Shown here: one piece after another, positions 1 to 13,511 of the stretch | Position numbering within the stretch: the stretch's first letter is position 1 | Layout of the letters: every line of letters begins with the position of its first letter | Virus record (IMG/VR): IMGVR_UViG_2711768010_000006 | Source of the DNA: a virus | Lineage: Duplodnaviria > Heunggongvirae > Uroviricota > Caudoviricetes | Direction: 5' to 3' (one strand) | DNA: 13,511 nt | Notes under the pieces: model-generated | The model's database searches: none | The model's input: the letters and a program-made list of their open reading frames with translations, nothing else | What the model was told of the DNA's origin: nothing | Program-made: the position numbers and the translations under genes

Positions 1-2397
1 CAGAAAGCGGGGATTTCCGTCGGGCAGTATAAAGCCGCCATGCGTATGCTGCCTGCACAGTTCACCGACGTGGCCACGCAGCTTGCAGGGGGGCAGAATC
101 CCTGGCTGATCCTGCTGCAACAGGGTGGTCAGGTTAAGGACTCCTTCGGCGGGATGATCCCCATGTTCAGGGGGCTTGCCGGCGCGATCACCCTGCCGAT
201 GGTGGGGGCCACCTCGCTGGCGGTGGCGACCGGTGCGCTGGCGTATGCCTGGTATCAGGGCAACTCAACCCTGTCCGATTTCAACAAAACGCTGGTCCTT
301 TCCGGCAATCAGGCGGGACTGACGGCAGATCGTATGCTGGTCCTGTCCAGAGCCGGGCAGGCGGCAGGGCTGACGTTTAACCAGACCAGCGAGTCACTCA
401 GCGCACTGGTTAAGGCGGGGGTAAGCGGTGAGGCTCAGATTGCGTCCATCAGCCAGAGTGTGGCGCGTTTCTCCTATGCATCCGGCGTGGAGGTGGACAA
501 GGTCGCTGAAGCCTTCGGGAAGCTGACCACAGACCCGACGTCGGGGCTGACGGCGATGGCACGCCAGTTCCATAACGTGACGGCGGAGCAGATTGCGTAT
601 GTTGCTCAGTTGCAGCGTTCCGGCGATGAAGCCGGGGCATTGCAGGCGGCGAACGAGGCCGCAACGAAAGGGTTTGATGACCAGACCCGCCGCCTGAAAG
701 AGAACATGGGCACGCTGGAGACCTGGGCAGACAGGACAGCGCGGGCATTCAAATCCATGTGGGATGCGGTGCTGGATATTGGTCGTCCTGATACCGCGCA
801 GGAGATGCTGATTAAGGCAGAGGCTGCGTTTAAGAAAGCAGACGACATCTGGAATCTGCGCAAGGATGATTATTTCGTTAACGATGAAGCACGGGCGCGT
901 TACTGGGATGATCGTGAAAAAAAACGCCTGGAGCGGGATGCAGCCCAAAAGAGGGTAGATCAACAGCGTCAACAGGACAAAAATGCGCAGCAGCAGAGCG
1001 ATACCGAAGCGTCACGGCTGAAATATACCGAAGAGGCGCAGAAGGCTTACGAACGGCTGCAGACGCCGCTGGAGAAATATACCGCCCGTCAGGAAGAACT
1101 GAACAAGGCACTGAAAGACGGGAAAATCCTGCAGGCGGATTACAACACGCTGATGGCGGCGGCGAAAAAGGATTATGAAGCGACGCTGAAAAAGCCGAAA
1201 CAGTCCGGCGTGAAGGTGTATGCGGGCGATCGTCAGGAAGACAGTGCTCATGCGGCCCTGCTGACGCTTCAGGCAGAACTCCGGACGCTGGAGAAGCATG
1301 CCGGAGCGAATGAGAAAATCAGCCAGCAGCGCCGGGATTTGTGGAAGGCAGAAAGTCAGTTCGCGGTACTGGAGGAGGCGGCACAACGTCGCCAGCTGTC
1401 CGCACAGGAGAAATCCCTGCTGGCGCATAAAGACGAGACGCTGGAGTACAAACGCCAGCTGGCTGCACTTGGTGACAAGGTTACGTATCAGGAGCACCTG
1501 AATGCGCTGGCGCAGCAGGCGGATAAATTCGCACAGCAGCAACGGGCAAAACGGGCAGCCATTGATGCGAAAAACCGGGGGCTGACTGACCGGCAGGCAG
1601 CGCGGGAAGCCACGGAACAGCGCCTGAAGGAACAGTATGGCGATAATCCTCTGGCGCTGAATAACGTCATGTCAGAGCAGAAAAAGACCTGGGCGGCTGA
1701 AGACCAGCTTCGCGGGAGCTGGATGGCAGGCCTGAAGTCCGGCTGGAGTGAGTGGGAAGAGAGCGCCACGGACAGTATGTCACAGGTTAAAAGTGCAGCC
1801 ACGCAGACCTTTGATGGTATTGCACAGAATATGGCGGCGATGCTGACCGGCAGTGAACAGAACTGGCGCAGCTTCACCCGCTCCGTGCTGTCCATGATGA
1901 CAGAAATTCTGCTTAAGCAGGCAATGGTGGGGATTGTCGGGAGTATCGGCAGCGCCATTGGCGGGGCTGTTGGTGGCGGCGCATCCGCGTCAGGTGGTAC
2001 AGCCATTCAGGCCGCTGCGGTGAAATTCCATTTTGCAACCGGGGGATTTACGGGAACCGGCGGCAAATATGAGCCAGCGGGGATTGTTCACCGTGGTGAA
2101 TTTGTCTTCACGAAGGAGGCAACCAGCCGGATTGGCGTGGGGAATCTCTACCGGCTGATGCGCGGCTATGCGGAAGGTGGTTATGTGGGCGGTGCCGGAA
2201 GTCCGGCGCAGATGCGGCGGGCTGAAGGCATTAATTTTAATCAGAACAATCACGTGGTGATTCAGAACGACGGTACGAATGGTCTGCCAGGTCCACAGAT
2301 GATGAAGGCCGTGTATGACATGGCCCGCAAGGGTGCCCGTGATGAAATTCAGACACAGATGCGTGATGGTGGCCTGTTCTCCGGAGGTGGACGATGA
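1..2397 (+). CDS. H: Tail tape measure protein (lambda gpH-like), 5'-truncated by the window edge
   Basis: The frame is open from base 1 with no stop, so the ATG at 40 is internal and the gene starts upstream of the window. The translation has the coiled, Q/A/K/E-rich middle and Gly-rich C-terminus (GIVGSIGSAIGGAVGGGASASGG) typical of tape measure proteins. Its stop overlaps the M start in an ATGA junction, as in lambda. Confidence 0.9.
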   Translation, partial: QKAGISVGQYKAAMRMLPAQFTDVATQLAGGQNPWLILLQQGGQVKDSFGGMIPMFRGLAGAITLPMVGATSLAVATGALAYAWYQGNSTLSDFNKTLVLSGNQAGLTADRMLVLSRAGQAAGLTFNQTSESLSALVKAGVSGEAQIASISQSVARFSYASGVEVDKVAEAFGKLTTDPTSGLTAMARQFHNVTAEQIAYVAQLQRSGDEAGALQAANEAATKGFDDQTRRLKENMGTLETWADRTARAFKSMWDAVLDIGRPDTAQEMLIKAEAAFKKADDIWNLRKDDYFVNDEARARYWDDREKKRLERDAAQKRVDQQRQQDKNAQQQSDTEASRLKYTEEAQKAYERLQTPLEKYTARQEELNKALKDGKILQADYNTLMAAAKKDYEATLKKPKQSGVKVYAGDRQEDSAHAALLTLQAELRTLEKHAGANEKISQQRRDLWKAESQFAVLEEAAQRRQLSAQEKSLLAHKDETLEYKRQLAALGDKVTYQEHLNALAQQADKFAQQQRAKRAAIDAKNRGLTDRQAAREATEQRLKEQYGDNPLALNNVMSEQKKTWAAEDQLRGSWMAGLKSGWSEWEESATDSMSQVKSAATQTFDGIAQNMAAMLTGSEQNWRSFTRSVLSMMTEILLKQAMVGIVGSIGSAIGGAVGGGASASGGTAIQAAAVKFHFATGGFTGTGGKYEPAGIVHRGEFVFTKEATSRIGVGNLYRLMRGYAEGGYVGGAGSPAQMRRAEGINFNQNNHVVIQNDGTNGLPGPQMMKAVYDMARKGARDEIQTQMRDGGLFSGGGR

Positions 2398-2723
2398 AAA
2401 CCTTCCGCTGGAAAGTGAAACCCGGTATGGATGTGGCTTCGGCCCCTTCTGTAAGAAAGGTGCGCTTTGGTGATGGCTATTCCCAGCGAGCGCCTGCCGG
2501 GCTGAATGCCAACCTGAAAACGTACAGCGTGACGCTTTCTGTCCCCCGTGAGGAGGCCATGGTACTGGAGTCGTTTCTGGAAGAGCACGGGGGCTGGAAA
2601 GCCTTTCTGTGGACGCCGCCTTATGAGTGGCGGCAGATAAAGGTGACCTGCGCAAAATGGTCGTCGCGGGTCAGTATGCTGCGTGTTGAGTTCAGCGCAG
2701 AGTTTGAACAGGTGGTGAACTGA
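2394..2723 (+). CDS. M: Minor tail protein M (lambda gpM-like)
   Basis: 109-aa ORF beginning MKTFRWKVKPGMDVASAPSVRKVRFGDGYSQRAP, the same length as lambda gpM and in the same position. It overlaps the H stop by 4 bp and shares 1 bp with the L start (TGATG). Confidence 0.9.
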   Translation: MKTFRWKVKPGMDVASAPSVRKVRFGDGYSQRAPAGLNANLKTYSVTLSVPREEAMVLESFLEEHGGWKAFLWTPPYEWRQIKVTCAKWSSRVSMLRVEFSAEFEQVVN

Positions 2724-3421
2724 TGCAGGATATCCGGCAGGAAACACTGAATGAATGCACCCGTGCGGAGCAGTCGGCCAGCGTGGTGCTCTGGGAAATC
2801 GATCTGACAGAGGTCGGTGGAGAACGTTATTTTTTCTGTAATGAGCAGAACGAAAAAGGTGAGCCGGTCACCTGGCAGGGGCGACAGTATCAGCCGTATC
2901 CCATTCAGGGGAGTGGTTTTGAACTGAATGGCAAAGGCACCAGTACGCGCCCCACGCTGATGGTTTCTAACCTGTACGGTATGGTCACCGGGATGGCGGA
3001 AGATATGCAGAGTCTGGTCGGCGGAACGGTGGTCCGGCGTAAGGTTTACGCCCGTTTTCTGGATGCGGTGAACTTCGTCAACGGAAACAGTGACGCCGAT
3101 CCGGAGCAGGAGGTGATCAGCCGCTGGCGCATTGAGCAGTGCAGCGAACTGAGCGCGGTGAGTGCCTCCTTTGTACTGTCCACGCCGACGGAAACGGATG
3201 GCGCTGTTTTTCCGGGGCGCATCATGCTGGCCAACACCTGCACCTGGACCTATCGCGGCGATGAGTGCGGTTATCACGGTCCGGCGGTCGCGGATGAATA
3301 TGACCAGCCAACGTCCGACATCACGAAGGATAAATGCAGCAAATGCCTGAGTGGCTGTAAGTTTCGCAATAACGTCGGCAACTTTGGCGGCTTCCTTTCC
3401 ATTAACAAACTTTCGCAGTAA
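2723..3421 (+). CDS. L: Minor tail tip protein L (lambda gpL-like)
   Basis: 232-aa ORF, the same length as lambda gpL, with a Cys-rich C-terminus (CTWTYRGDECGYHG...CSKCLSGCKF). Syntenic between M and K. Confidence 0.9.
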   Translation: MQDIRQETLNECTRAEQSASVVLWEIDLTEVGGERYFFCNEQNEKGEPVTWQGRQYQPYPIQGSGFELNGKGTSTRPTLMVSNLYGMVTGMAEDMQSLVGGTVVRRKVYARFLDAVNFVNGNSDADPEQEVISRWRIEQCSELSAVSASFVLSTPTETDGAVFPGRIMLANTCTWTYRGDECGYHGPAVADEYDQPTSDITKDKCSKCLSGCKFRNNVGNFGGFLSINKLSQ

Positions 3422-3426
3422 ATCCC

Positions 3427-4170
3427 ATGACAGAGACAGAATCAGCGATTCTGGCGCACGCCCGGCGATGTGCTCCAGCGGAGTCGTGCGGCTTCGTGGT
3501 AAGAACGCCGGAGGGGGAAAGATATTTCCCCTGCGTGAATATCTCCGGTGAGCCGGAGGCGTATTTCCGTATGTCGCCGGAAGACTGGCTGCAGGCAGAG
3601 ATGCAGGGTGAGATTGTGGCACTGGTCCACAGCCACCCCGGTGGTCTGCCCTGGCTGAGTGAGGCCGACCGGCGGCTGCAGGTGCAGAGTGATTTGCCGT
3701 GGTGGCTGGTCTGCCGGGGGGCGATTCACAAGTTCCGCTGTGTGCCACATCTTACCGGGCGGCGCTTTGAGCACGGGGTGACGGACTGTTACACGCTGTT
3801 CCGGGATGCTTACCATCTGGCGGGGATTGAGATGCCGGATTTTCATCGTGAGGATGACTGGTGGCGTCACGGTCAGAATCTCTATCTGGATAATCTGGAG
3901 GCCACAGGGCTGTATCAGGTGCCGTTGTCAGCGGCGCAGCCGGGCGATGTGCTGCTGTGCTGTTTTGGTTCATCGGTGCCGAATCATGCCGCCATTTACT
4001 GTGGTGACGGCGAGCTGCTGCACCATATTCCTGAACAACTGAGCAAACGAGAGAGGTATACCGACAAATGGCAGCGACGCACACACTCCCTCTGGCGTCA
4101 CCGGGCATGGCACGCATCTGCCTTTACGGGGATTTGCAACGATTTGGCCGCCGCATCGACCTTCGTGTGA
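3427..4170 (+). CDS. K: Tail tip assembly protein K (lambda gpK-like; MPN/JAMM plus NlpC/P60 domains)
   Basis: 247-aa ORF starting 6 bp after the L stop. It carries an exact JAMM-type motif H-x-H-x7-S-x2-D (HSHPGGLPWLSEAD) and a downstream Cys/His set (GVTDCYTLF...NHAAIY) consistent with an NlpC/P60 fold. An internal ATG at 3571 with a GGAGG upstream would give the 199-aa form; the longer form keeps the whole MPN domain. The 3' end overlaps I by 103 bp. Confidence 0.88.
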   Translation: MTETESAILAHARRCAPAESCGFVVRTPEGERYFPCVNISGEPEAYFRMSPEDWLQAEMQGEIVALVHSHPGGLPWLSEADRRLQVQSDLPWWLVCRGAIHKFRCVPHLTGRRFEHGVTDCYTLFRDAYHLAGIEMPDFHREDDWWRHGQNLYLDNLEATGLYQVPLSAAQPGDVLLCCFGSSVPNHAAIYCGDGELLHHIPEQLSKRERYTDKWQRRTHSLWRHRAWHASAFTGICNDLAAASTFV

Positions 4171-4739
4171 AAACGGGTGCCGAAGCCATCCGGGCGATGG
4201 CCACACAGCTCCCTGCGTTTCGTCAGAAGCTGAGCGACGGCTGGTATCAGGTGCGTATTGCCGGGCAGGATGTTAGCACGTCCGGATTAACGGCACAGTT
4301 ACATGAGGCTCTGCCTGACGGCGCTGTGATTCATATTGTTCCCAGAGTCGCCGGGGCCAAGTCAGGTGGTGTATTCCAGATTGTCCTGGGAGCAGCCGCC
4401 ATTGCCGGATCATTCTTTACCGCCGGAGCCACCCTTGCAGCATGGGGGGCTGCCATTGGTGCCGGTGGTATGACCGGCATTCTGTTTTCTCTCGGTGCCA
4501 GTATGGTGCTCGGCGGTGTGGCTCAGATGCTGGCACCGAAAGCCAGAACTCCCCGCACACAGACAACGGATAACGGTAAGCAGAACACCTATTTCTCCTC
4601 ACTGGATAACATGGTTGCCCAGGGCAATGTTATGCCTGTTCTGTATGGTGAAATGCGCGTGGGGTCACGTGTGGTATCTCAGGAGATCAGCACGGCAGAC
4701 GAAGGGGACGGTGGTCAGGTTGTGGTGATTGGTCGCTGA
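4068..4739 (+). CDS. I: Tail tip assembly protein I (lambda gpI-like)
   Basis: 223-aa ORF, the same length as lambda gpI, overlapping the 3' end of K. It has an N-terminal soluble domain followed by a long Gly/Ala-rich hydrophobic segment (GGVFQIVLGAAAIAGSFFTAGATLAAWGAAIGAGGMTGILFSLGASMVLGG). Confidence 0.88.
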   Translation: MAATHTLPLASPGMARICLYGDLQRFGRRIDLRVKTGAEAIRAMATQLPAFRQKLSDGWYQVRIAGQDVSTSGLTAQLHEALPDGAVIHIVPRVAGAKSGGVFQIVLGAAAIAGSFFTAGATLAAWGAAIGAGGMTGILFSLGASMVLGGVAQMLAPKARTPRTQTTDNGKQNTYFSSLDNMVAQGNVMPVLYGEMRVGSRVVSQEISTADEGDGGQVVVIGR

Positions 4740-4799
4740 TGCAAAATGTTTTATGTGAAATCGCCTCCGGGCGGTTTTATCGTTTATGGAGCATGACGA

Positions 4800-7700
4800 A
4801 TGGGTAAAGGCAGCAGTAAGGGGCATACCCCGCGCGAAGCGAAGGACAACCTGAAGTCCACGCAGCTGCTGAGTGTGATCGATGCCATCAGCGAAGGGCC
4901 GGTTGAAGGTCCGGTGGATGGATTAAAAAGCGTGCTGCTGAACAGTACGCCGGTGCTGGACAGTGAGGGGAATACCAACATCTCCGGCGTCACGGTGGTG
5001 TTCCGGGCAGGTGAGCAGGAGCAGTCACCGCCGGAGGGATTTGAATCCTCCGGCTCCGAGACGGTGCTGGGTACGGAAGTGAAATATGACACGCCGATCA
5101 CCCGGACCATCACGTCGGCAAACATTGACCGACTGCGTTTTACCTTCGGTGTACAGGCACTGGTGGAAACCACCTCAAAGGGAGACAGGAATCCGTCTGA
5201 AGTTCGCCTGCTGGTTCAGATACAGCGTAACGGTGGCTGGGTGACGGAAAAAGACATCACCATTAAGGGCAAAACCACCTCGCAGTATCTGGCCTCGGTG
5301 GTGGTGGATAACCTGCCGCCGCGCCCGTTTAATATCCGGATGCGCAGGATGACGCCAGACAGCACCACAGACCAGCTGCAGAACAAAACGCTCTGGTCGT
5401 CATACACCGAAATCATCGATGTGAAACAGTGCTACCCGAACACGGCACTGGTCGGCGTACAGGTGGATTCGGAGCAGTTCGGCAGCCAGCAGGTGAGCCG
5501 TAATTATCATCTTCGCGGGCGCATTCTGCAGGTGCCGTCGAACTATAATCCGCAGACGCGGCAATACAGCGGTATCTGGGACGGAACGTTAAAACCGGCA
5601 TACAGCAACAACATGGCCTGGTGTCTGTGGGATATGCTGACCCATCCGCGCTATGGCATGGGGAAACGTCTTGGTGCGGCAGATGTGGATAAATGGGCGC
5701 TGTATGTCATCGGCCAGTACTGTGACCAGTCGGTGCCGGACGGCTTTGGCAGCACGGAGCCGCGCATCACCTGTAATGCCTGGCTGACCACACAGCGCAA
5801 GGCGTGGGATGTGCTCAGTGATTTCTGCTCGGCGATGCGCTGTATGCCGGTATGGAACGGGCAGACGCTGACGTTCGTGCAGGACCGACAGTCGGATAAG
5901 GTGTGGGCCTATAACCGCAGTAATGTGGTGATGCCGGATGATGGCGCGCCGTTCCGCTACAGTTTCAGCGCCCTGAAAGACCGCCATAATGCCGTTGAGG
6001 TGAACTGGATTGACCCGGATAACGGCTGGGAGACGGCGACAGAGCTTGTGGAGGATACGCAGGCCATTGTCCGTTACGGTCGTAACGTCACGAAGATGGA
6101 TGCCTTTGGCTGTACCAGCCGGGGGCAGGCACACCGCGCCGGGCTGTGGCTGATTAAAACGGAACTGCTGGAGACGCAGACCGTGGATTTCAGCGTGGGT
6201 GCTGAAGGGCTTCGTCATGTACCGGGCGATGTCATTGAAATCTGCGATGATGACTATGCCGGTATCCGCACCGGCGGGCGCGTGCTGGCGGTGAACAGCC
6301 AGACCCGGACGCTGACGCTCGACCGTGAAATCACGCTGCCATCCTCCGGCACCACGCTGATAAGCCTGGTTGACGGGCAGGGGAATCCGGTCAGCGTGGA
6401 GGTCCAGTCCGTCACCGACGGCGTGAAGGTAAAAGTGAGCCGTGTTCCTGACGGTGTTGCTGAATACAGCGTGTGGGGGCTGAAGCTGCCGACGCTGCAC
6501 CAGCGATTGTTCCGCTGCGTGAGTATCCGTGAGAACGACGACGGCACGTATGCCATCACCGCCGTGCAGCATGTGCCGGAAAAAGAAGCCATCGTGGATA
6601 ACGGGGCGCACTTTGACGGCGACCAGAGCGGCACGGTAAATGGTGTCACGCCGCCAGCGGTGCAGCACCTGACCGCAGAAGTCACCGCAGACAGCGGGGA
6701 ATACCAGGTGCTGGCCCGCTGGGACACGCCGAAGGTGGTGAAGGGCGTGAGCTTCCTGCTTCGCCTGACCGTGGCAGCGGATGACGGCCGTGAGCGGCTG
6801 GTCAGCACGGCCCGGACGACGGAAACCACTTACCGCTTCACACAACTGGCGCTGGGGAACTACAGGCTGACAGTCCGGGCAGTAAATGCGTGGGGGCAGC
6901 AGGGCGATCCGGCGTCGGTATCGTTCCGGATTGCCGCACCGGCAGCGCTGTCGCGGATTGAGCTGACGCCGGGCTATTTTCAGATAACCGCCACGCCGCA
7001 TCTTGCGGTTTATGATCCGACGGTACAGTTTGAGTTCTGGTTCTCGGAAAAGCGGATTGCGGATATCAGGCAGGTTGAAACCACAGCACGCTATCTTGGC
7101 ACGGCGCTGTACTGGATAGCCGCCAGTATCAATATCAAACCGGGCCATGATTATTACTTTTATATCCGCAGTGTGAACACCGTTGGCAAATCGGCATTCG
7201 TGGAGGCTGTTGGTCAGCCGAGTGATGATGCATCCGGTTATCTGGATTTTTTCAAAGGCGAGATAGGGAAAACCCATCTGGCTCAGGAGCTGTGGACGCA
7301 GATTGATAACGGTCAGCTTGCGCCTGACCTGGCTGAAATCAGGACGTCCATTACGGATGTCAGCAATGAAATCACGCAGACCGTCAATAAGAAACTGGAA
7401 GACCAGAGTGCGGCAATTCAGCAGATACAGAAGGTTCAGGTTGATACAAATAATAACCTGAACAGCATGTGGGCTGTGAAGCTGCAGCAGATGCAGGACG
7501 GACGCCTTTATATCGCGGGTATTGGTGCCGGTATTGAGAACACCCCTGACGGCATGCAGAGTCAGGTGCTGCTGGCGGCGGACAGGATTGCGATGGTTAA
7601 TCCTGCGAATGGCAACACAAAACCGATGTTTGTTGGTCAGGGCGATCAGATATTCATGAACGACGTGTTCCTGAAACGCCTGACGGCCCCCACCATTACC

Positions 7701-8297
7701 AGCGGTGGAAATCCATCGGCATTTTCCCTGACTCCGGACGGAAAGCTGACCGCTAAAAATGCGGATATCAGTGGCAGTGTGAATGCGAACGCCGGGACGC
7801 TCAACAATGTCACGGTAAATGAAAACTGTACGATTAAGGGCATGCTGGAGGCGACTCAGGTCAGAGGTGACTTCGTTAAAGCTGTATCCAAATCATTTCC
7901 GAAACAGGCTGGTACGTGGGGTAACACGGAAACACCAAACGGGACGGTTACAGTCACCATAAGCGATGATCATAACTTTGACCGCCAGATTATTATTCCG
8001 CCCATTATTTTTAACGGTATAGCGTATGACGATCCGGGGAGCGGAAATAACCCAGGAGGCACGCGATACACGGGTTATGGTTTTGAAGTTCGCAAAAACG
8101 GCGTATTAATCGCATCCAGAGAAACTAAAGGTGCCATTCCCGGTAGTTACAGTGCAGTTATTGATATGCCTAGTGGTGGTGGTAGCGTCACTCTGGAGTT
8201 TAAGATTTTCCAGAAAGGCAATCAGGGGGCAGGCAATATCACCGACTGTACGGTGATTGTGACCAAAAAAGCGGCTTCCGGCATCAGTATTCGTTGA
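4800..8297 (+). CDS. J: Host specificity / central tail fibre protein J (lambda gpJ-like)
   Basis: 1165-aa ORF with a GGAG 8 nt upstream of the ATG. The N-terminal ~800 aa match my recollection of lambda gpJ closely ([34 protein letters not shown]...). A central block and the last ~150 aa look different from lambda, and the protein is 33 aa longer than lambda's 1132. Confidence 0.92.
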
Positions 8298-8319
8298 AAT
8301 ATTTATAACCCCAATAAAT

Positions 8320-8346
8320 GGCGTCAGGAATGACGCCTTTTTTATT
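8320..8346 (+). terminator. Rho-independent terminator downstream of J
   Basis: Perfect 7-bp stem GGCGTCA / TGACGCC with a GGAA loop, followed directly by TTTTTTATT, starting 23 bp after the J stop. Confidence 0.6.
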
Positions 8347-8367
8347 GCAGAAAAGCGAGAGGTAATT

Positions 8368-8967
8368 ATGCGTAAAGTTTGTGCAGCCATTTTGTCCGCA
8401 GCCATTTGCCTGGCCGTATCCGGTGCGCCTGCATGGGCGTCTGAACATCAGTCCACGCTGAGCGCGGGGTATCTTCATGCCCGGACCAACGTTCCCGGCA
8501 GTGATGATCTGAACGGGATTAACGTGAAATACCGTTATGAGTTTACGGATACGCTGGGGCTGGTGACGTCATTCAGCTATGCAGGAGACAAGAATCGCCA
8601 GCTGACCCGTTACAGCGATACCCGCTGGCATGAAGATTCCGTTCGTAACCGCTGGTTCAGCGTAATGGCGGGGCCGTCTGTGCGCGTGAATGAATGGTTC
8701 AGCGCGTATGCGATGGCGGGTGTGGCTTACAGCCGTGTGTCGACTTTTTCCGGGGATTATATCCGCGTAACTGACAATAAGGGGAAAACGCACGATGTGC
8801 TGACCGGAAGTGATGACGGTCGCCACAGCAACACGTCTCTGGCGTGGGGAGCTGGCGTGCAGTTTAACCCGACCGAATCCGTGGCCATTGATATTGCTTA
8901 TGAAGGCTCCGGCAGTGGCGACTGGCGCACTGACGGTTTCATCGTGGGTGTCGGTTATAAATTCTGA
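8368..8967 (+). CDS. lom: Lom outer membrane protein (Ail/Lom/PagC/Rck family beta-barrel)
   Basis: 199-aa ORF with a signal peptide (MRKVCAAILSAAICLAVSGAPAWA) and a C-terminal aromatic beta-barrel end (FIVGVGYKF). It matches lambda Lom in position, between J and stf. Confidence 0.9.
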   Translation: MRKVCAAILSAAICLAVSGAPAWASEHQSTLSAGYLHARTNVPGSDDLNGINVKYRYEFTDTLGLVTSFSYAGDKNRQLTRYSDTRWHEDSVRNRWFSVMAGPSVRVNEWFSAYAMAGVAYSRVSTFSGDYIRVTDNKGKTHDVLTGSDDGRHSNTSLAWGAGVQFNPTESVAIDIAYEGSGSGDWRTDGFIVGVGYKF

Positions 8968-8993
8968 TTAGCCAGGTAACACAGTATTATGAC

Positions 8994-9020
8994 AGCCCGC
9001 CGGTTCAGGCGGGCTTTTTT
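8994..9020 (+). terminator. Rho-independent terminator downstream of lom
   Basis: Stem GCCCGCC / GGCGGGC with a GGTTCA loop, followed by TTTTTT, 27 bp after the lom stop and just before the stf start. Confidence 0.6.
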
Positions 9021-9031
9021 GTGGGGTGAAT

Positions 9032-12000
9032 ATGGCAGTAAAGATTTCAGGTGTACTGAAAGACGGCACAGGAAAACCGGTACAGAACTGCACAATCCAG
9101 CTGAAAGCAAAACGTAACAGCACCACGGTGGTGGTGAACACGCTGGCCTCAGAAAATCCGGATGAAGCCGGGCGTTACAGCATGGACGTTGAGTACGGNN
9201 NNNNNNNNNNNNNNNNNNNNNNNNNNNNNNNNNNNNNNNNNNNNNNNNNNNNNNNNNNNNNNNNNNNNNNNNNNNNNNNNNNNNNNNNNNNNNNNNNNNN
9301 NNNNNNNNNNNNNNNNNNNNNNNNNNNNNNNNNNNNNNNNNNNNNNNNNNNNNNNNNNNNNNNNNNNNNNNNNNNNNNNNNNNNNNNNNNNNNNNNNNNN
9401 NNNNNNNNNNNNNNNNNNNNNNNNNNNNNNGGATTCCCGCCGTCACATGCCGGGACCATCACCGTGTATGAAGATTCCCGACCCGGTACGCTGAATGATT
9501 TTCTCGGTGCCATGACGGAGGATGATGCCCGTCCGGAGGCTCTGCGCCGTTTTGAGCTGATGGTGGAAGAGGTGGCGCGTAACGCGTCCGCAGTGGCACA
9601 GAACACGGCAGCCGCGAAGAAATCAGCCAGCGATGCCAGCACATCAGCCCGTGAGGCGGCAACCCATGCGACTGATGCTGCAGATTCAGCACGTGCAGCC
9701 AGCACGTCAGCCGGACAGGCCGCTTCGTCGGCTCAGTCAGCGTCTTCCAGCGCAGGAACGGCATCAACAAAGGCCACTGAAGCCTCAAAAAGTGCTGCCG
9801 CTGCAGAGTCCTCAAAAAGCGCGGCGGCTACCAGTGCCGGTGCGGCGAAAACGTTAGAAACGAATGCGGCAGCGTCACAACAATCAGCAGCCACTTCTGC
9901 ATCCACCGCGACCACGAAAGCGTCAGAAGCTGCCACCTCAGCCCGGGATGCGTCGGCTTCAAAAGAGGCGGCAAAATCATCAGAAACGAACGCATCATCA
10001 AGCGCCAGTAGCGCAGCTTCCTCGGCGACGGCGGCTGCAAATTCTGCGAAGGCGGCCAAAACGTCCGAGACGAACGCCAGGTCTTCTGAAACGGCAGCGG
10101 GACAGAGTGCCTCAGCTGCGGCAGGCTCAAAAACAGCGGCTGCGTCGTCTGCCAGCGCCGCGTCAACAAGTGCCGGGCAGGCCTCAGCCAGTGCCACCGC
10201 CGCCGGAAAATCGGCAGAAAGCGCCGCATCATCCGCTTCAACAGCCACAACGAAGGCTGGCGAAGCCACTGAGCAGGCCACGGCAGCAGCGAGGTCAGCT
10301 TCCGCAGCGAAGACATCCGAAACGAACGCGAAAGCGTCGGAAACCCGTGCAGAATCCTCAAAAACGGCTGCCGCATCGTCCGCCAGTTCGGCGGCGTCAT
10401 CGGCATCATCGGCGTCTGCTTCAAAAGATGAGGCGACCAGACAGGCGTCAGCAGCGAAGGGCAGCGCCACGACGGCATCCACGAAGGCGACAGAGGCTGC
10501 TGGTAGTGCGACGGCAGCAGCTCAGAGCAAAAGTACGGCGGAATCTGCAGCAACGCGCGCTGAGACAGCGGCAAAACGGGCAGAGGATATTGCATCCGCC
10601 GTGGCGCTTGAGGATGCGAGCACGACGAAAAAGGGGATAGTACAGCTCAGTAGTGCGACTAACAGCACTTCCGAGTCACTGGCGGCAACACCAAAAGCCG
10701 TTAAGGCCGCGTATGACCTGGCTAACGGGAAATACACCGCACAGGATGCAACGNNNNNNNNNNNNNNNNNNNNNGTGGCTGGATTCTCAGGGAGCATTTA
10801 ACCATCCATACTGGATGTGCAAGGGTTCCTGGTCTTATGGCAATAATAAAATCATTACTGATACTGGCTGCGGTAATATTCATCTCGCCGGAGCTGTCAT
10901 TGAAGTAATGGGGATAAAGTCAGCGATGACGATCCGCATTACCACTCCGACCACATCCAGCGGTGGCGGAACAACCAACGCCCAGTTTACCTATATTAAT
11001 CACGGAACAGATTATTCACCTGGCTGGCGAAGGGACTATAACTCCAGAAATAAGCCAACGGCATCAGAGATCGGGGCGCTACCGTCAGGTGGAACAGCAG
11101 TATCATCAGTTAATCTGGCTTCAAAAGGTCGGGTAGCCGCGCTGACAGACAATACGCAGGGGGCAGCAGGTCTTGAGTTATACGAGGTGTATAACAACGG
11201 ATATCCAACAGCGTATGGAAATATCATTCACCTGAAAGGGATGACAGCCGTTGGCGAAGGTGAGTTACTCATCGGCTGGAGTGGTACAAGCGGTGCTCAT
11301 GCTCCGGCATTTATTCGTTCACGACGGGATACGACCGACGCAAACTGGTCGCCGTGGGCGCAGCTTTACACCTCGGCTCATCCTCCTGCAGAGTTTTATC
11401 CAGTCGGTGCACCAATCCCGTGGCCATCAGATACCGTTCCGTCTGGTTATGCCCTGATGCAGGGGCAGACTTTTGACAAATCTGCTTACCCGAAACTTGC
11501 AGCCGCTTATCCGTCAGGCGTGATCCCTGATATGCGTGGCTGGACGATTAAGGGCAAGCCCGCCAGTGGTCGTGCCGTATTGTCTCAGGAACAGGATGGC
11601 ATTAAATCGCACACCCACAGCGCCAGCGCATCCAGTACGGATTTGGGGACGAAAACCACATCGTCGTTTGATTACGGCACTAAATCCACGAATAACACCG
11701 GGGCGCATACGCACAGTCTGAGCGGCTCTACAAGTTCAGCTGGGGCCCACCAACATAGTCAGACTGGGCCCAGAACGAATAGCGGGAGTCAACCTACTGG
11801 AATGTTTCCGGCAGGGAGTACTCAAGTTAGCGGGACTAATCAGGTTGGTATCAGTGGCTCATTAACCAGTGGCACCTCCCAATGGGTAGGTAAATCATCT
11901 TCAGAAGGAAACCATACACACTCACTGTCCGGCACAGCAGCATCTGCGGGTGCACACGCGCATACTGTCGGTATTGGTGCTCATACGCACTCTGTTGCGA

Positions 12001-12098
12001 TTGGTTCACATGGACACACCATCACCGTTAACGCTGCTGGTAACGCGGAAAACACCGTCAAAAACATCGCATTTAACTATATTGTGAGGCTCGCATAA
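9032..12098 (+). CDS. stf: Side tail fibre protein Stf, interrupted by two runs of N with a frame change across the second
   Basis: The N-terminus from the ATG at 9032 ([33 protein letters not shown]) matches lambda Stf; the GTG at 9026 in the ORF track is a less likely start. The middle is an Ala/Ser/Thr-rich repeat, followed by a tail fibre repeat motif ([41 protein letters not shown]). The C-terminal part (ORF 10653..12098, frame 0) ends with the His-rich segment and ...[22 protein letters not shown], as in lambda Stf. The two ORFs are one gene split by the N runs. Confidence 0.75.
9199..9430. other. Run of 232 N (assembly gap or masked sequence) inside stf
   Basis: Directly visible in the sequence. 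The flanking coding frame is preserved across it. Confidence 0.99.
9598..10620 (+). repeat. Coding tandem repeat region in the stf shaft (Ala/Ser/Thr-rich, recurring K-T/S-S-E-T-N-A units)
   Basis: Motifs such as [28 protein letters not shown] and [37 protein letters not shown] recur at irregular spacing of roughly 30-80 aa. The low-complexity GC-rich DNA also opens spurious ORFs in other frames and on the minus strand (9733..10482, 9828..10595, 9864..10640). Boundaries are approximate. Confidence 0.6.
10754..10774. other. Run of 21 N inside stf, with a reading-frame change across it
   Basis: Directly visible. The upstream stf frame ends at a stop at 10799-10801, while the downstream stf frame is the one opened by ORF 10653..12098. 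Confidence 0.99.
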
Positions 12099-12679
12099 TG
12101 GCATTCAGAATGAGTGAACAAGCACGGACCATAAAAATTTATAACCTGCTGGCCGGAACTAATGAATTTATTGGTGAAGGTGACGCATATATTCCGCCTC
12201 ATACAGGTCTGCCTGCAAACAGTACCGATATTGCACCGCCAGATATTCCGGCTGGTTTCGTGGCTGTTTTCAACAGTGATGAGTCATCGTGGCATCTCGT
12301 TGAAGATCATCGGGGTAAAACGGTTTATGACGTGGCTTCCGGCGACGCGTTATTTATTTCTGAACTCGGCTCATTACCGGAAAATGTCACCTGGTTATCC
12401 CCGGAAGGGGAGTTTCAGAAGTGGAACGGCACAGCCTGGGTGAAGGATACGGAAGCAGAAAAACTGTTCCGGATCCGGGAGGCGGAAGAAACAAAAAACA
12501 GCCTGATGCAGGTAGCCAGTGAGCATATAGCGCCGCTTCAGGATGCTGTGGATCTGGAGATCGCAACGGAGAAAGAAACCTTGTTGCTGGAAGCTTGGAA
12601 AAAGTATCGGGTGTTGCTGAACCGTGTTGATACATCAACTGCACCGGATATTGAATGGCCAGTAGCACCTATAGGGTAA
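12098..12679 (+). CDS. tfa: Tail fibre assembly protein Tfa (chaperone)
   Basis: 193-aa ORF beginning [54 protein letters not shown], matching lambda Tfa. Its start shares 1 bp with the stf stop (TAATG). Confidence 0.9.
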
Positions 12680-12759
12680 ATTCGTAATGATTACCTAAAT
12701 ACGTTATTCTTTTGTTAAAAAAGTGATTTTGCTATAGGTAGGGAGTATGTTCTTGGATT

Positions 12760-12795
12760 AAGAATAAAAAATCGCCATGAAAGAGCTTCATGGCG
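12760..12795 (-). terminator. Rho-independent terminator reading on the minus strand
   Basis: Perfect 9-bp inverted repeat CGCCATGAA / TTCATGGCG (12773-12781 and 12787-12795) with a 5-nt loop. On the minus strand the hairpin is followed by ATTTTTTATTCTT (reverse complement of 12760-12772). Confidence 0.55.
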
Positions 12796-13428
12796 AGTAC
12801 ATAAACGTACAAAATGTGATGAAAGTAGAGTGGCGTAAGCCACTATATTAAGATATGACAATAGCGAAGAAAAGTAAATAACATTTTATGGACGTTTAAT
12901 TGTTAATTATAAAAACTAGAGTGCCCGATATTGTTTATCTTGCTTTAAAATAATGTACTCAAACCAAATTTTTGAGCTAAAAGCTCAAATAATATAAATG
13001 CAATAATAATGTTTAATAAGACAATTAGCTTGCTTTGTATTTTCATTTCGGAATACTGTTAAGTAACTTTGATGACCCTAACAATAGATCGGAATTTTCT
13101 TAGAGTCAATGGTCACTGTTTTTGCTTGCAAAGCAAATGTTTTGGTGGTTATAAGTCGTCTTAATATAGTCACGCATGCAACTTGTTCCATGCGGAGATT
13201 AAAGATTGGAATATAACGCGAAGATGGAATTAAATTACATTTGCAATAATTAATTTATTATTACTCAATAATTACCGATATTATTATTGTAAATTAATCA
13301 TTAGAATGCAAAAAGAAATGTAACGGCAAAATAAGAGGACGATAGCTGAGAAAAAAGCGTGCTTTCCCAATCTGGGGCAAATCACGTCTGAATGACACCT
13401 GAAAACAGGTGGTAGCCTCAAGAAGGCT

Positions 13429-13511
13429 GGTGATGCTGCCAACTTACTGATTTAGTGTATGATGGTGTTTTTGAGGTGCTCCAGTGGCTTCTGTTTCTAT
13501 CAGCTGTCCCT
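13429..13511 (+). mobile_element. IS1 insertion sequence, left end only (continues beyond the window)
   Basis: The sequence GGTGATGCTGCCAACTTACTGATTTAGTGTATGATGGTGTTTTTGAGGTGCTCCAGTGGCTTCTGTTTCTATCAGCTGTCCCT matches, as far as I can recall it, the IS1 left terminal inverted repeat and the start of insA. Confidence 0.9.
13484..13511 (+). CDS. insA: IS1 InsA, first 9 codons only (GTG start; truncated by the window edge)
   Basis: GTG GCT TCT GTT TCT ATC AGC TGT CCC translates to MASVSISCP, the InsA N-terminus, at the expected distance from the IS1 inverted repeat. Confidence 0.7.

Follow-up and report, generated by a model that had tools for sequence, protein, structure and literature searches.

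An AT-rich module downstream of tfa in lambdoid prophages probably carries a small gene for a YncL-like membrane peptide

The small membrane protein YncL (b4598) of Escherichia coli K-12 is a stress-response protein that has reportedly been tied only recently to membrane depolarisation and stress-induced metabolic silencing. It is synthesised under stress and localises to the inner membrane (PMC12542507, PMC10470546), is degraded by RseP in vivo (PMC10470546), and its production partly depolarises the membrane, switches on the phage-shock response and reduces viability (PMC12542507). A phage moron is an independent unit of promoter, open reading frame (ORF) and terminator inserted between conserved phage genes (PMC3594210), and AppY-type regulators encoded by prophages are also known (AppY, PatE and Psr; PMC10057817, PMC10877973). 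Here, the AT-rich stretch downstream of the tail fibre assembly gene tfa (positions 12680–13428) was analysed in IMG/VR virus record IMGVR_UViG_2711768010_000006 (Caudoviricetes), the window being the whole stretch of DNA under analysis, 13,511 nucleotides in length. The stretch holds a minus-strand ORF of 33 codons, referred to as ORF33, within a 578-bp module referred to as block A. The explanation favoured here, which we consider probable, is that block A is a self-contained AT-rich unit, i.e. a moron, that runs leftward, convergent with tfa, and encodes a YncL-like peptide. The ORF33 cassette belongs to known kinds, namely YncL and the lambdoid morons, as opposed to being a new kind of system. 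The features of the unit, numbered as in the window, are as follows.

12680–13257, no strand assigned: block A, a 578-bp AT-rich portable module (putative moron), carried along with the tfa 3′ end
12945–13046, minus strand: ORF33, a 33-codon gene for a YncL-like, predicted single-pass membrane peptide, MKIQSKLIVLLNIIIAFILFELLAQKFGLSTLF, identified by conservation, hidden Markov model (HMM) and BLASTP
13081–13109, minus strand: predicted sigma-70 promoter of ORF33, with -35 box TTGACT (13109–13104), a 17-nt spacer and -10 box TATTGT (13086–13081), matching the consensus at 9 of 12 positions
12763–12848, minus strand: conserved element of the 3′ untranslated region (UTR), made up of a stem-loop (AGUGGC-UUAC-GCCACU), 18 nt of single strand, a short hairpin and the terminator
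12763–12796, minus strand: intrinsic terminator of the unit, with a 10-bp stem (TCGCCATGAA/TTCATGGCGA), a 5-nt loop and a U6 tail

The coding status of ORF33 was assessed in an alignment of 37 distinct variants of block A from E. coli genomes and IMG/VR prophages. The start, stop and length of ORF33 are unchanged in all 37 variants, including the L007 lineage, in which 18 of the 102 bases of ORF33 differ and identity across block A is ∼80%, and all insertions and deletions within block A are situated outside the frame. The other small ORFs (22–48 amino acids) are each disrupted in some lineage, save for two short and uninformative exceptions, one of which lies within the ultra-conserved hairpin region while the other has a TTG start. 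Comparison with the L007 lineage revealed 11 synonymous substitutions over 19.7 sites and 7 non-synonymous substitutions over 79.3 sites (pS 0.56, pN 0.088; pN/pS ∼0.16), and the L012 lineage differs by 5 synonymous substitutions and 1 non-synonymous substitution. Variable columns number 8, 2 and 13 at codon positions 1, 2 and 3, respectively, and none of 20,000 type-preserving permutations yielded an intact ORF33 with five or fewer amino-acid changes. The peptide is also unchanged in a decayed prophage in which the neighbouring tail genes are all pseudogenes. The pattern of substitution indicates that ORF33 is under frame-specific purifying selection at the level of the protein.

A specific relationship to YncL emerged from profile and pairwise searches. 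The NCBIfam YncL model (NF000537) matched the peptides of two ORF33 lineages with E values of 1.3e-5 (25.0 bits) and 3.7e-5 (23.5 bits), in an alignment that spans residues 1–28 of 30 model positions. BLASTP against K-12 YncL returned 11 of 28 identical (39%) and 18 of 28 positive residues, those shared being M1, S5, V9, L10, N12, A16, L19, F20, L22, F27 and G28, and yncL was the top match for ORF33 when a 25-kb K-12 locus was searched with tblastn. Ten shuffled or reversed ORF33 controls gave no match at E ≤10. The peptide consists of MKIQSK, an 18-residue hydrophobic stretch and QKFGLSTLF, a layout read off the sequence as opposed to being generated by a topology predictor. In common with YncL, one transmembrane helix is predicted, preceded by a short basic N-terminus; ORF33 has two additional C-terminal residues (33 amino acids compared with 31 in YncL). 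Unlike yncL, which is chromosomal and lies between patD and ortT, ORF33 is prophage-borne beside tfa. Moreover, K-12 yncL has a Shine-Dalgarno sequence (GGUGG) whereas ORF33 is without one, and the UTRs of the two genes show no similarity at the DNA level. On these matches, ORF33 is homologous to YncL, as a distant paralogue. If the assignment as a phage-borne paralogue holds, ORF33 would represent a second, mobile member of the YncL family, and could connect the carriage of prophages with membrane energetics, with tolerance or with the exclusion of phages.

The predicted transcription start implies a 5′ UTR of ∼28 nt. No lineage departs from the -35 box and flanking sequence, CTTAGAGTCAAT, and T1, A2 and T6 are retained in the -10 box. 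Downstream, the 3′ UTR of ORF33 extends for ∼180 nt, the last 85 nt of which form the best-conserved part of block A: variable columns per base amount to 0.14 in the 3′ element, 0.225 in ORF33, 0.29 in the 5′ UTR and promoter, and 0.43–0.48 in the flanks. Even in the most divergent lineage the 3′ element is 90–95% identical, compared with 53–65% in flanking bins. Its predicted fold has an energy of -27.1 kcal/mol (z = -5.7), and the terminator stem is invariant in the 37 variants except for the terminal pair. A scan of the stretch returned two terminator-like sites, both on the minus strand, where shuffled sequences gave 0.5 ± 0.7; the stronger, at 12796–12772 with a T6 tail, coincides with a computed perfect 10-bp inverted repeat (12772–12796). 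Further inverted repeats were evident by eye, namely AGTGGC/GCCACT at 12829–12844, TTTGAGCT/AGCTCAAA at 12971–12989, and CACCTG/CAGGTG within 13344–13428. The original prediction, which was made from the window alone, had noted several perfect inverted repeats and a minus-strand terminator, both of which were recovered; its suggestion that the terminator might belong to a gene beyond the insertion sequence IS1, into which the stretch runs, was not upheld, and the terminator is now assigned to a unit lying wholly inside the stretch. The further suggestion that small peptides or RNAs might be encoded here fared better, given a conserved 33-residue minus-strand ORF under purifying selection and equipped with its own terminator. 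Inspection of the alignment by eye for hexamers that would specify a leaderless mRNA, or a separate promoter for the 3′ element, revealed none that were conserved and convincing.

A second, strongly conserved non-coding patch, GTTATAAGT..TCTTAATATAGTCAC..ATGCAACTTGTTCC..GGAGATTAAAG, is located upstream of the ORF33 promoter at 13160–13215. The patch is 93% identical in the divergent lineage and contains the -10-like hexamers TATAGT (plus strand) and TATATT (minus strand). It could serve as an alternative promoter, which would give a 5′ UTR of ∼110 nt, or as a binding site for a regulator.

Several observations weigh against ORF33 being an expressed, YncL-like gene. The promoter matches only 9 of 12 consensus positions, and promoter-like sites in this AT-rich DNA are not more numerous than in shuffled sequences. 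No GGAG-like Shine-Dalgarno motif is present within 15 nt upstream of the ATG (UUCCGAAAUG) in any lineage. The diversity available is shallow, comprising four or five lineages, all from lambdoid prophages of the E. coli type, and the selection test consequently rests on ∼24 substitutions. One metagenomic copy of ORF33 has ATA in place of the ATG, and one database variant is frameshifted. With respect to family membership, the YncL HMM score of 25 bits is below the curated NCBI cut-off of 35, and ORF33 is therefore not a YncL equivalog by the NCBI rule. Finally, the hairpins of the 3′ element gain no support from covariation because the stems never vary, and recombination inside block A, of which L043 is a chimera, could inflate the apparent conservation of the element.

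The peptide is hardly represented in databases. Within a collection of ∼15 billion predicted proteins it corresponds to two unnamed entries, in addition to a frameshifted variant, and a search of a library of 1.84 billion representatives recovered the peptide itself and the frameshift variant, and nothing else. Scans of genome contigs revealed no wider homologues, scans of viral and metagenomic sequences yielded none beyond the four or five lineages already described, and the peptide string appears in no paper in the literature searched. A tblastn search of phages with the peptide returned no match, possibly owing to the low-complexity filter acting on a hydrophobic query. It seems likely that annotation is missing because the gene is too small for annotation pipelines, and not for want of function. 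Roughly a seventh of complete E. coli genomes, along with at least three sequenced temperate phages, carry ORF33, yet it is unannotated in the records examined; AT-rich DNA that appears empty downstream of tfa should accordingly be screened for very small ORFs before it is labelled regulatory.

As to how the unit might operate, the cassette would be transcribed leftward in the prophage, without relying on the late operon, and the ORF33 peptide would become inserted into the inner membrane. On the analogy of YncL, the peptide may then partly dissipate the potential across the membrane and set off envelope or stress responses, shifting the membrane or stress state of the lysogen. Candidate benefits are stress tolerance for the lysogen or the exclusion of other phages.

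The distribution of block A among genomes was examined by megablast against 5426 complete E. coli genomes, the results of which resolve the stretch into three differently distributed modules, a mosaic and not one homogeneous regulatory island; the single island envisaged in the original prediction is replaced accordingly. Block A is present in 831 of the genomes (∼15%), with at least 80% coverage in 822, and in 4 of 50,697 phage records. No annotated feature lies under block A among the matches listed, PGAP having placed none there, and in every annotated context examined the block is located 3′ of a tfa 3′ end. What lies on its other side varies. In prophages integrated at attLambda, and in phages mEp332, PhiR70_1 and ev099, the neighbour is a YdeO-like AraC-family regulator; in a decayed prophage, block A is found at the ydfJ junction with 95.7% identity; it also occurs beside sitABCD with 93% identity, and a copy of ∼80% identity adjoins Bcr/CflA or sit. 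Directly after block A in the ydfJ-type and divergent lineages there is a second fragment of the tfa 3′ end, N-terminally truncated and in the same orientation (L004 4580–4680, L007 4546–4645 and L011 3587–3686), such that block A is bracketed by tfa 3′ ends. This flanking arrangement suggests spread via recombination within tfa, and the cassette passes from prophage to prophage along with the tfa 3′ end. Two other origins for the paired tfa ends were considered and rejected. A diversity-generating retroelement, with the tfa 3′ end as variable repeat and a template repeat after block A, would need a reverse transcriptase, of which there is none nearby; the upstream tfa end also differs in type in L007 and L011, so the two tfa pieces are not repeats. 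An invertible tail-fibre segment is likewise discounted, since both tfa pieces are in direct orientation and an invertase is absent.

Block A would fit the definition of a phage moron on the basis of its predicted promoter, small ORF, terminator, deviant GC content and patchy presence. Like morons, it has a GC content that departs from that of its surroundings (29% versus 55%), its own terminator and a predicted promoter; it is flanked by the tail-fibre module on one side and the att end on the other, and related phages either have or lack it, with varied neighbours. Unlike typical morons such as lom and bor, ORF33 is far smaller, and its size relative to the usual morons would explain why it has been overlooked by annotation. 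The original prediction had taken the position after tfa for a cargo slot, and this is borne out by the genes found there in relatives, namely the AraC regulator, sitABCD, a Bcr/CflA transporter, a diguanylate cyclase or DUF1076 (NleG-like) proteins. Specifically, an O26 strain (L005 1803–3803) carries three DUF1076 (NleG-like) genes in the slot, and E. coli PS_131_S11 (L006 2274–3605) carries a sensor diguanylate cyclase. The remaining modules of the mosaic, together with the flanking features, are given below.

12098–12679, plus strand: tfa, tail fibre assembly protein of 193 amino acids, from the ORF list and so annotated in relatives of >99% identity
13258–13343, no strand assigned: lineage-specific AT-rich filler linking block A to block B, found only in attLambda-type prophages and phages mEp332, PhiR70_1 and ev099
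13344–13428, no strand assigned: block B, the first 85 bp of a relic attR-proximal arm from a lambdoid prophage that integrated at serU, truncated by IS1
13429–13511, plus strand: left end of IS1 (IS1A family), beginning GGTGATGCTGCCAACTTACTG
L001 5860–6199, strand not given: serU fossil, just past the IS1 insertion point and outside the window, identified by a tRNA-like Rfam match and comparison with K-12

The block B module also occurs at the chromosome-proximal right ends of other lambdoid prophages (L005 and L006), and the mosaic as a whole is what repeated swapping of cargo has left behind at the tail-fibre end of a lambda-like prophage. In composition, the abrupt drop to roughly 30% GC that had been estimated by eye was confirmed, with a GC fraction of 0.315 for 12680–13428 and 0.294 for 12680–13343, versus 0.551 for 1–12679, and the sliding profile falls from ∼0.5 to 0.27–0.34 immediately past 12680. 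The ORF list likewise confirmed that no ORF of 60 or more amino acids is present on either strand of the stretch, the longest being 52 amino acids (minus strand, 13284–13442, extending into IS1) and the next 48. The possibility that the stretch harbours a degraded larger gene was rejected: distant blastn against E. coli genomes and phages gave unannotated copies only, and the other small ORFs are broken in some lineage. That the stretch runs into IS1 also proved correct. The IS1 end at 13429 carries the terminal inverted repeat and is continuous with annotated IS1 transposase at identical junctions; a junction-spanning query was matched in 79 complete E. coli genomes at at least 80% coverage, and the IS1 side is annotated as IS1A-family transposase in the 15 listed of these 79.

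IS1 severs, at 13429, an AT-rich region that is longer in intact relatives, and leaves the ORF33 cassette intact. In those relatives a tract of 1.5 kb at 34.6% GC without an annotated ORF, apart from a 55-residue hypothetical protein listed in the record of phage ev099, separates tfa from a plus-strand gene for a 247-residue AraC-family regulator, which starts 757 bp past the IS1 insertion point, is YdeO-like by NCBIfam and is 28% identical to AppY. The original prediction that the stretch might serve as regulatory DNA and 3′ flank for a minus-strand cargo gene on the far side of IS1 therefore fails, since the next gene in intact relatives lies on the plus strand. An analogous arrangement exists in the cryptic K-12 prophage DLP12, in which tfaX is followed by a 620-bp spacer at 27.6% GC and then by appY. 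Both loci have a tail-fibre assembly gene, a long AT-rich ORF-free region and a plus-strand AraC regulator of ∼250 residues. The DLP12 spacer, unlike the relatives here, has neither block A nor a yncL-like ORF, and, unlike appY in DLP12, the regulator lies outside this window, cut off by IS1.

Beyond the insertion point in intact relatives, block B runs into 62 nt of the 3′ end of serU and 278 bp of K-12 chromosome from downstream of serU, with 97% identity. The segment is a fossil attR plus the transduced host flank of an ancestor that was integrated at serU, now resident in attLambda phages. Carriers of the fossil are attLambda-integrating phages and prophages of the mEp332, ev099 and PhiR70_1 type, and a fossil serU att site in such phages records refilling of the cargo slot. 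The window itself ends inside IS1, and two genomes with the same IS1 junction, L009 and L010, were examined for what follows. In L009 (7178–7945) a 550-bp deletion adjoins IS1, which is placed 206 bp from the start of the YdeO/AppY-like AraC gene; expression of that gene may be altered by the deletion and IS1. In L010 (7178 onward) IS1 is joined to htrE, reflecting a large rearrangement.

Alternative explanations for the stretch can be set against this background. It is very improbable that the stretch is a functionless AT-rich spacer, probably silenced by H-NS, between tfa and the next cargo, with ORF33 as a chance frame. The absence of any gene annotated beneath block A among the matches listed, from ∼830 genomes, accords with a spacer, as do the lack of an Rfam match, an ORF33 without a Shine-Dalgarno sequence, and promoter-like sites no commoner than in shuffles, and the portion from 13258 to 13428 does resemble filler plus a relic att arm. 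A spacer would not, however, be expected to show frame-specific substitutions (pN/pS ∼0.16, 0 of 20,000 permutations), an ORF33 intact in 37 of 37 variants while other small ORFs break in some lineage, a specific match to YncL that shuffles do not reproduce, or conservation that peaks at ORF33 and the terminator. The original prediction had raised the case in which the same sequence recurs as a spacer in many related prophages; recurrence without annotation was indeed found, in ∼830 genomes with no feature among the matches listed, but the conclusion that the DNA is ordinary does not follow, a small gene having been missed. It is also distinctly unlikely that the stretch functions as a long upstream regulatory or silencing region of the plus-strand YdeO/AppY-like AraC gene, severed by IS1 with a consequent change in expression. 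The AraC gene is indeed preceded by the 1.5-kb, 34.6% GC tract in intact relatives, the DLP12 tfaX–appY arrangement is analogous, AppY-type prophage regulators are known (PMC10057817, PMC10877973), and in L009, with the 550-bp deletion adjoining it, IS1 comes within 206 bp of the start of the AraC gene. Most carriers of block A, however, are without the AraC gene (the ydfJ, sit and Bcr contexts), and where the gene is present block A lies 750–1500 bp from its start with the fossil att site and chromosomal DNA intervening. Coding-type conservation on the opposite strand would, moreover, be left unexplained.

Other explanations accept that block A is expressed and differ as to its product. The idea that the main product is a small RNA (sRNA) from the 3′ element (12848–12763, minus strand), processed or independently transcribed and acting in trans on host or phage mRNAs, is rather unlikely. 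The element is the best-conserved segment of block A, and its 5′ stem-loop, 18-nt AU-rich single strand and U6-tailed terminator are typical of Hfq-binding sRNAs (z = -5.7), which makes a 3′-UTR-derived sRNA possible in structural terms. Set against this are the absence of an Rfam match, invariant stems and hence no covariation support, and the lack of a convincing conserved promoter directly upstream; the conservation could equally reflect terminator function and recombination, as in the L043 chimera. The small-RNA and coding readings are not mutually exclusive, and the same applies to a type I toxin-like role. A type I toxin–antitoxin system as such, in which ORF33 is a depolarising toxin kept under control by a small RNA, antisense or divergent, within block A, is distinctly improbable. 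At 33 residues, hydrophobic and single-pass, ORF33 resembles Hok, TisB, ZorO and YohP in form, production of the homologous YncL depolarises the membrane with a loss of viability (PMC12542507), the ORF33 mRNA lacks a Shine-Dalgarno sequence and has a predicted structure (z = -3.2), and a weak promoter-like site on the plus strand at 12855–12884, antisense to ORF33, has both hexamers roughly kept in the divergent lineage. Unlike members of those toxin families, ORF33 shares no sequence similarity with them and an antitoxin RNA was not found: there is no conserved plus-strand terminator or defined antisense RNA, a candidate hairpin at 13120–13136 is not conserved, and YncL itself has no known antitoxin. 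The Pfam toxin families returned no match, PADLOC defence models lying outside that search. Finally, a dual-function module, combining a YncL-like effector of controlled depolarisation with a 3′ UTR released as a trans-acting Hfq-type sRNA, is an unlikely reading in its joint form. As part of that joint reading, the effector may act as type I toxins do, or as an abortive-infection or superinfection-exclusion factor; a module of this kind would explain both the intact retention of the cassette in decayed prophages and its shuffling with the tfa 3′ end.

Covariance models from Rfam 15 returned no match at E ≤1 in the region of L001 equivalent to 12680–13428. The only Rfam matches near this region are the tRNA-like match on the serU fossil, outside the window, and one to IS009 in the tfa 3′ end. 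The latter (window ∼12580–12640; L001 4900–4960) is to the 3′ part of the IS009 model, with 56 bits against a gathering score of 117 and with the match clipped by the start of the search. IS009, a family of candidate sRNAs, evidently has some overlap with sequence derived from tfa. Elsewhere in the window, runs of N at 9199–9430 (232 bases) and 10754–10774 (21 bases) fall within the side tail fibre gene stf. Compared with complete E. coli genomes, the stf region had no exact counterpart, the best match showing 96.6% identity over 91%. Because of these runs, the apparent split of stf into ORFs of 591 amino acids (9026–10801) and 481 amino acids (10653–12098) is a masking artefact, as opposed to a frameshift.

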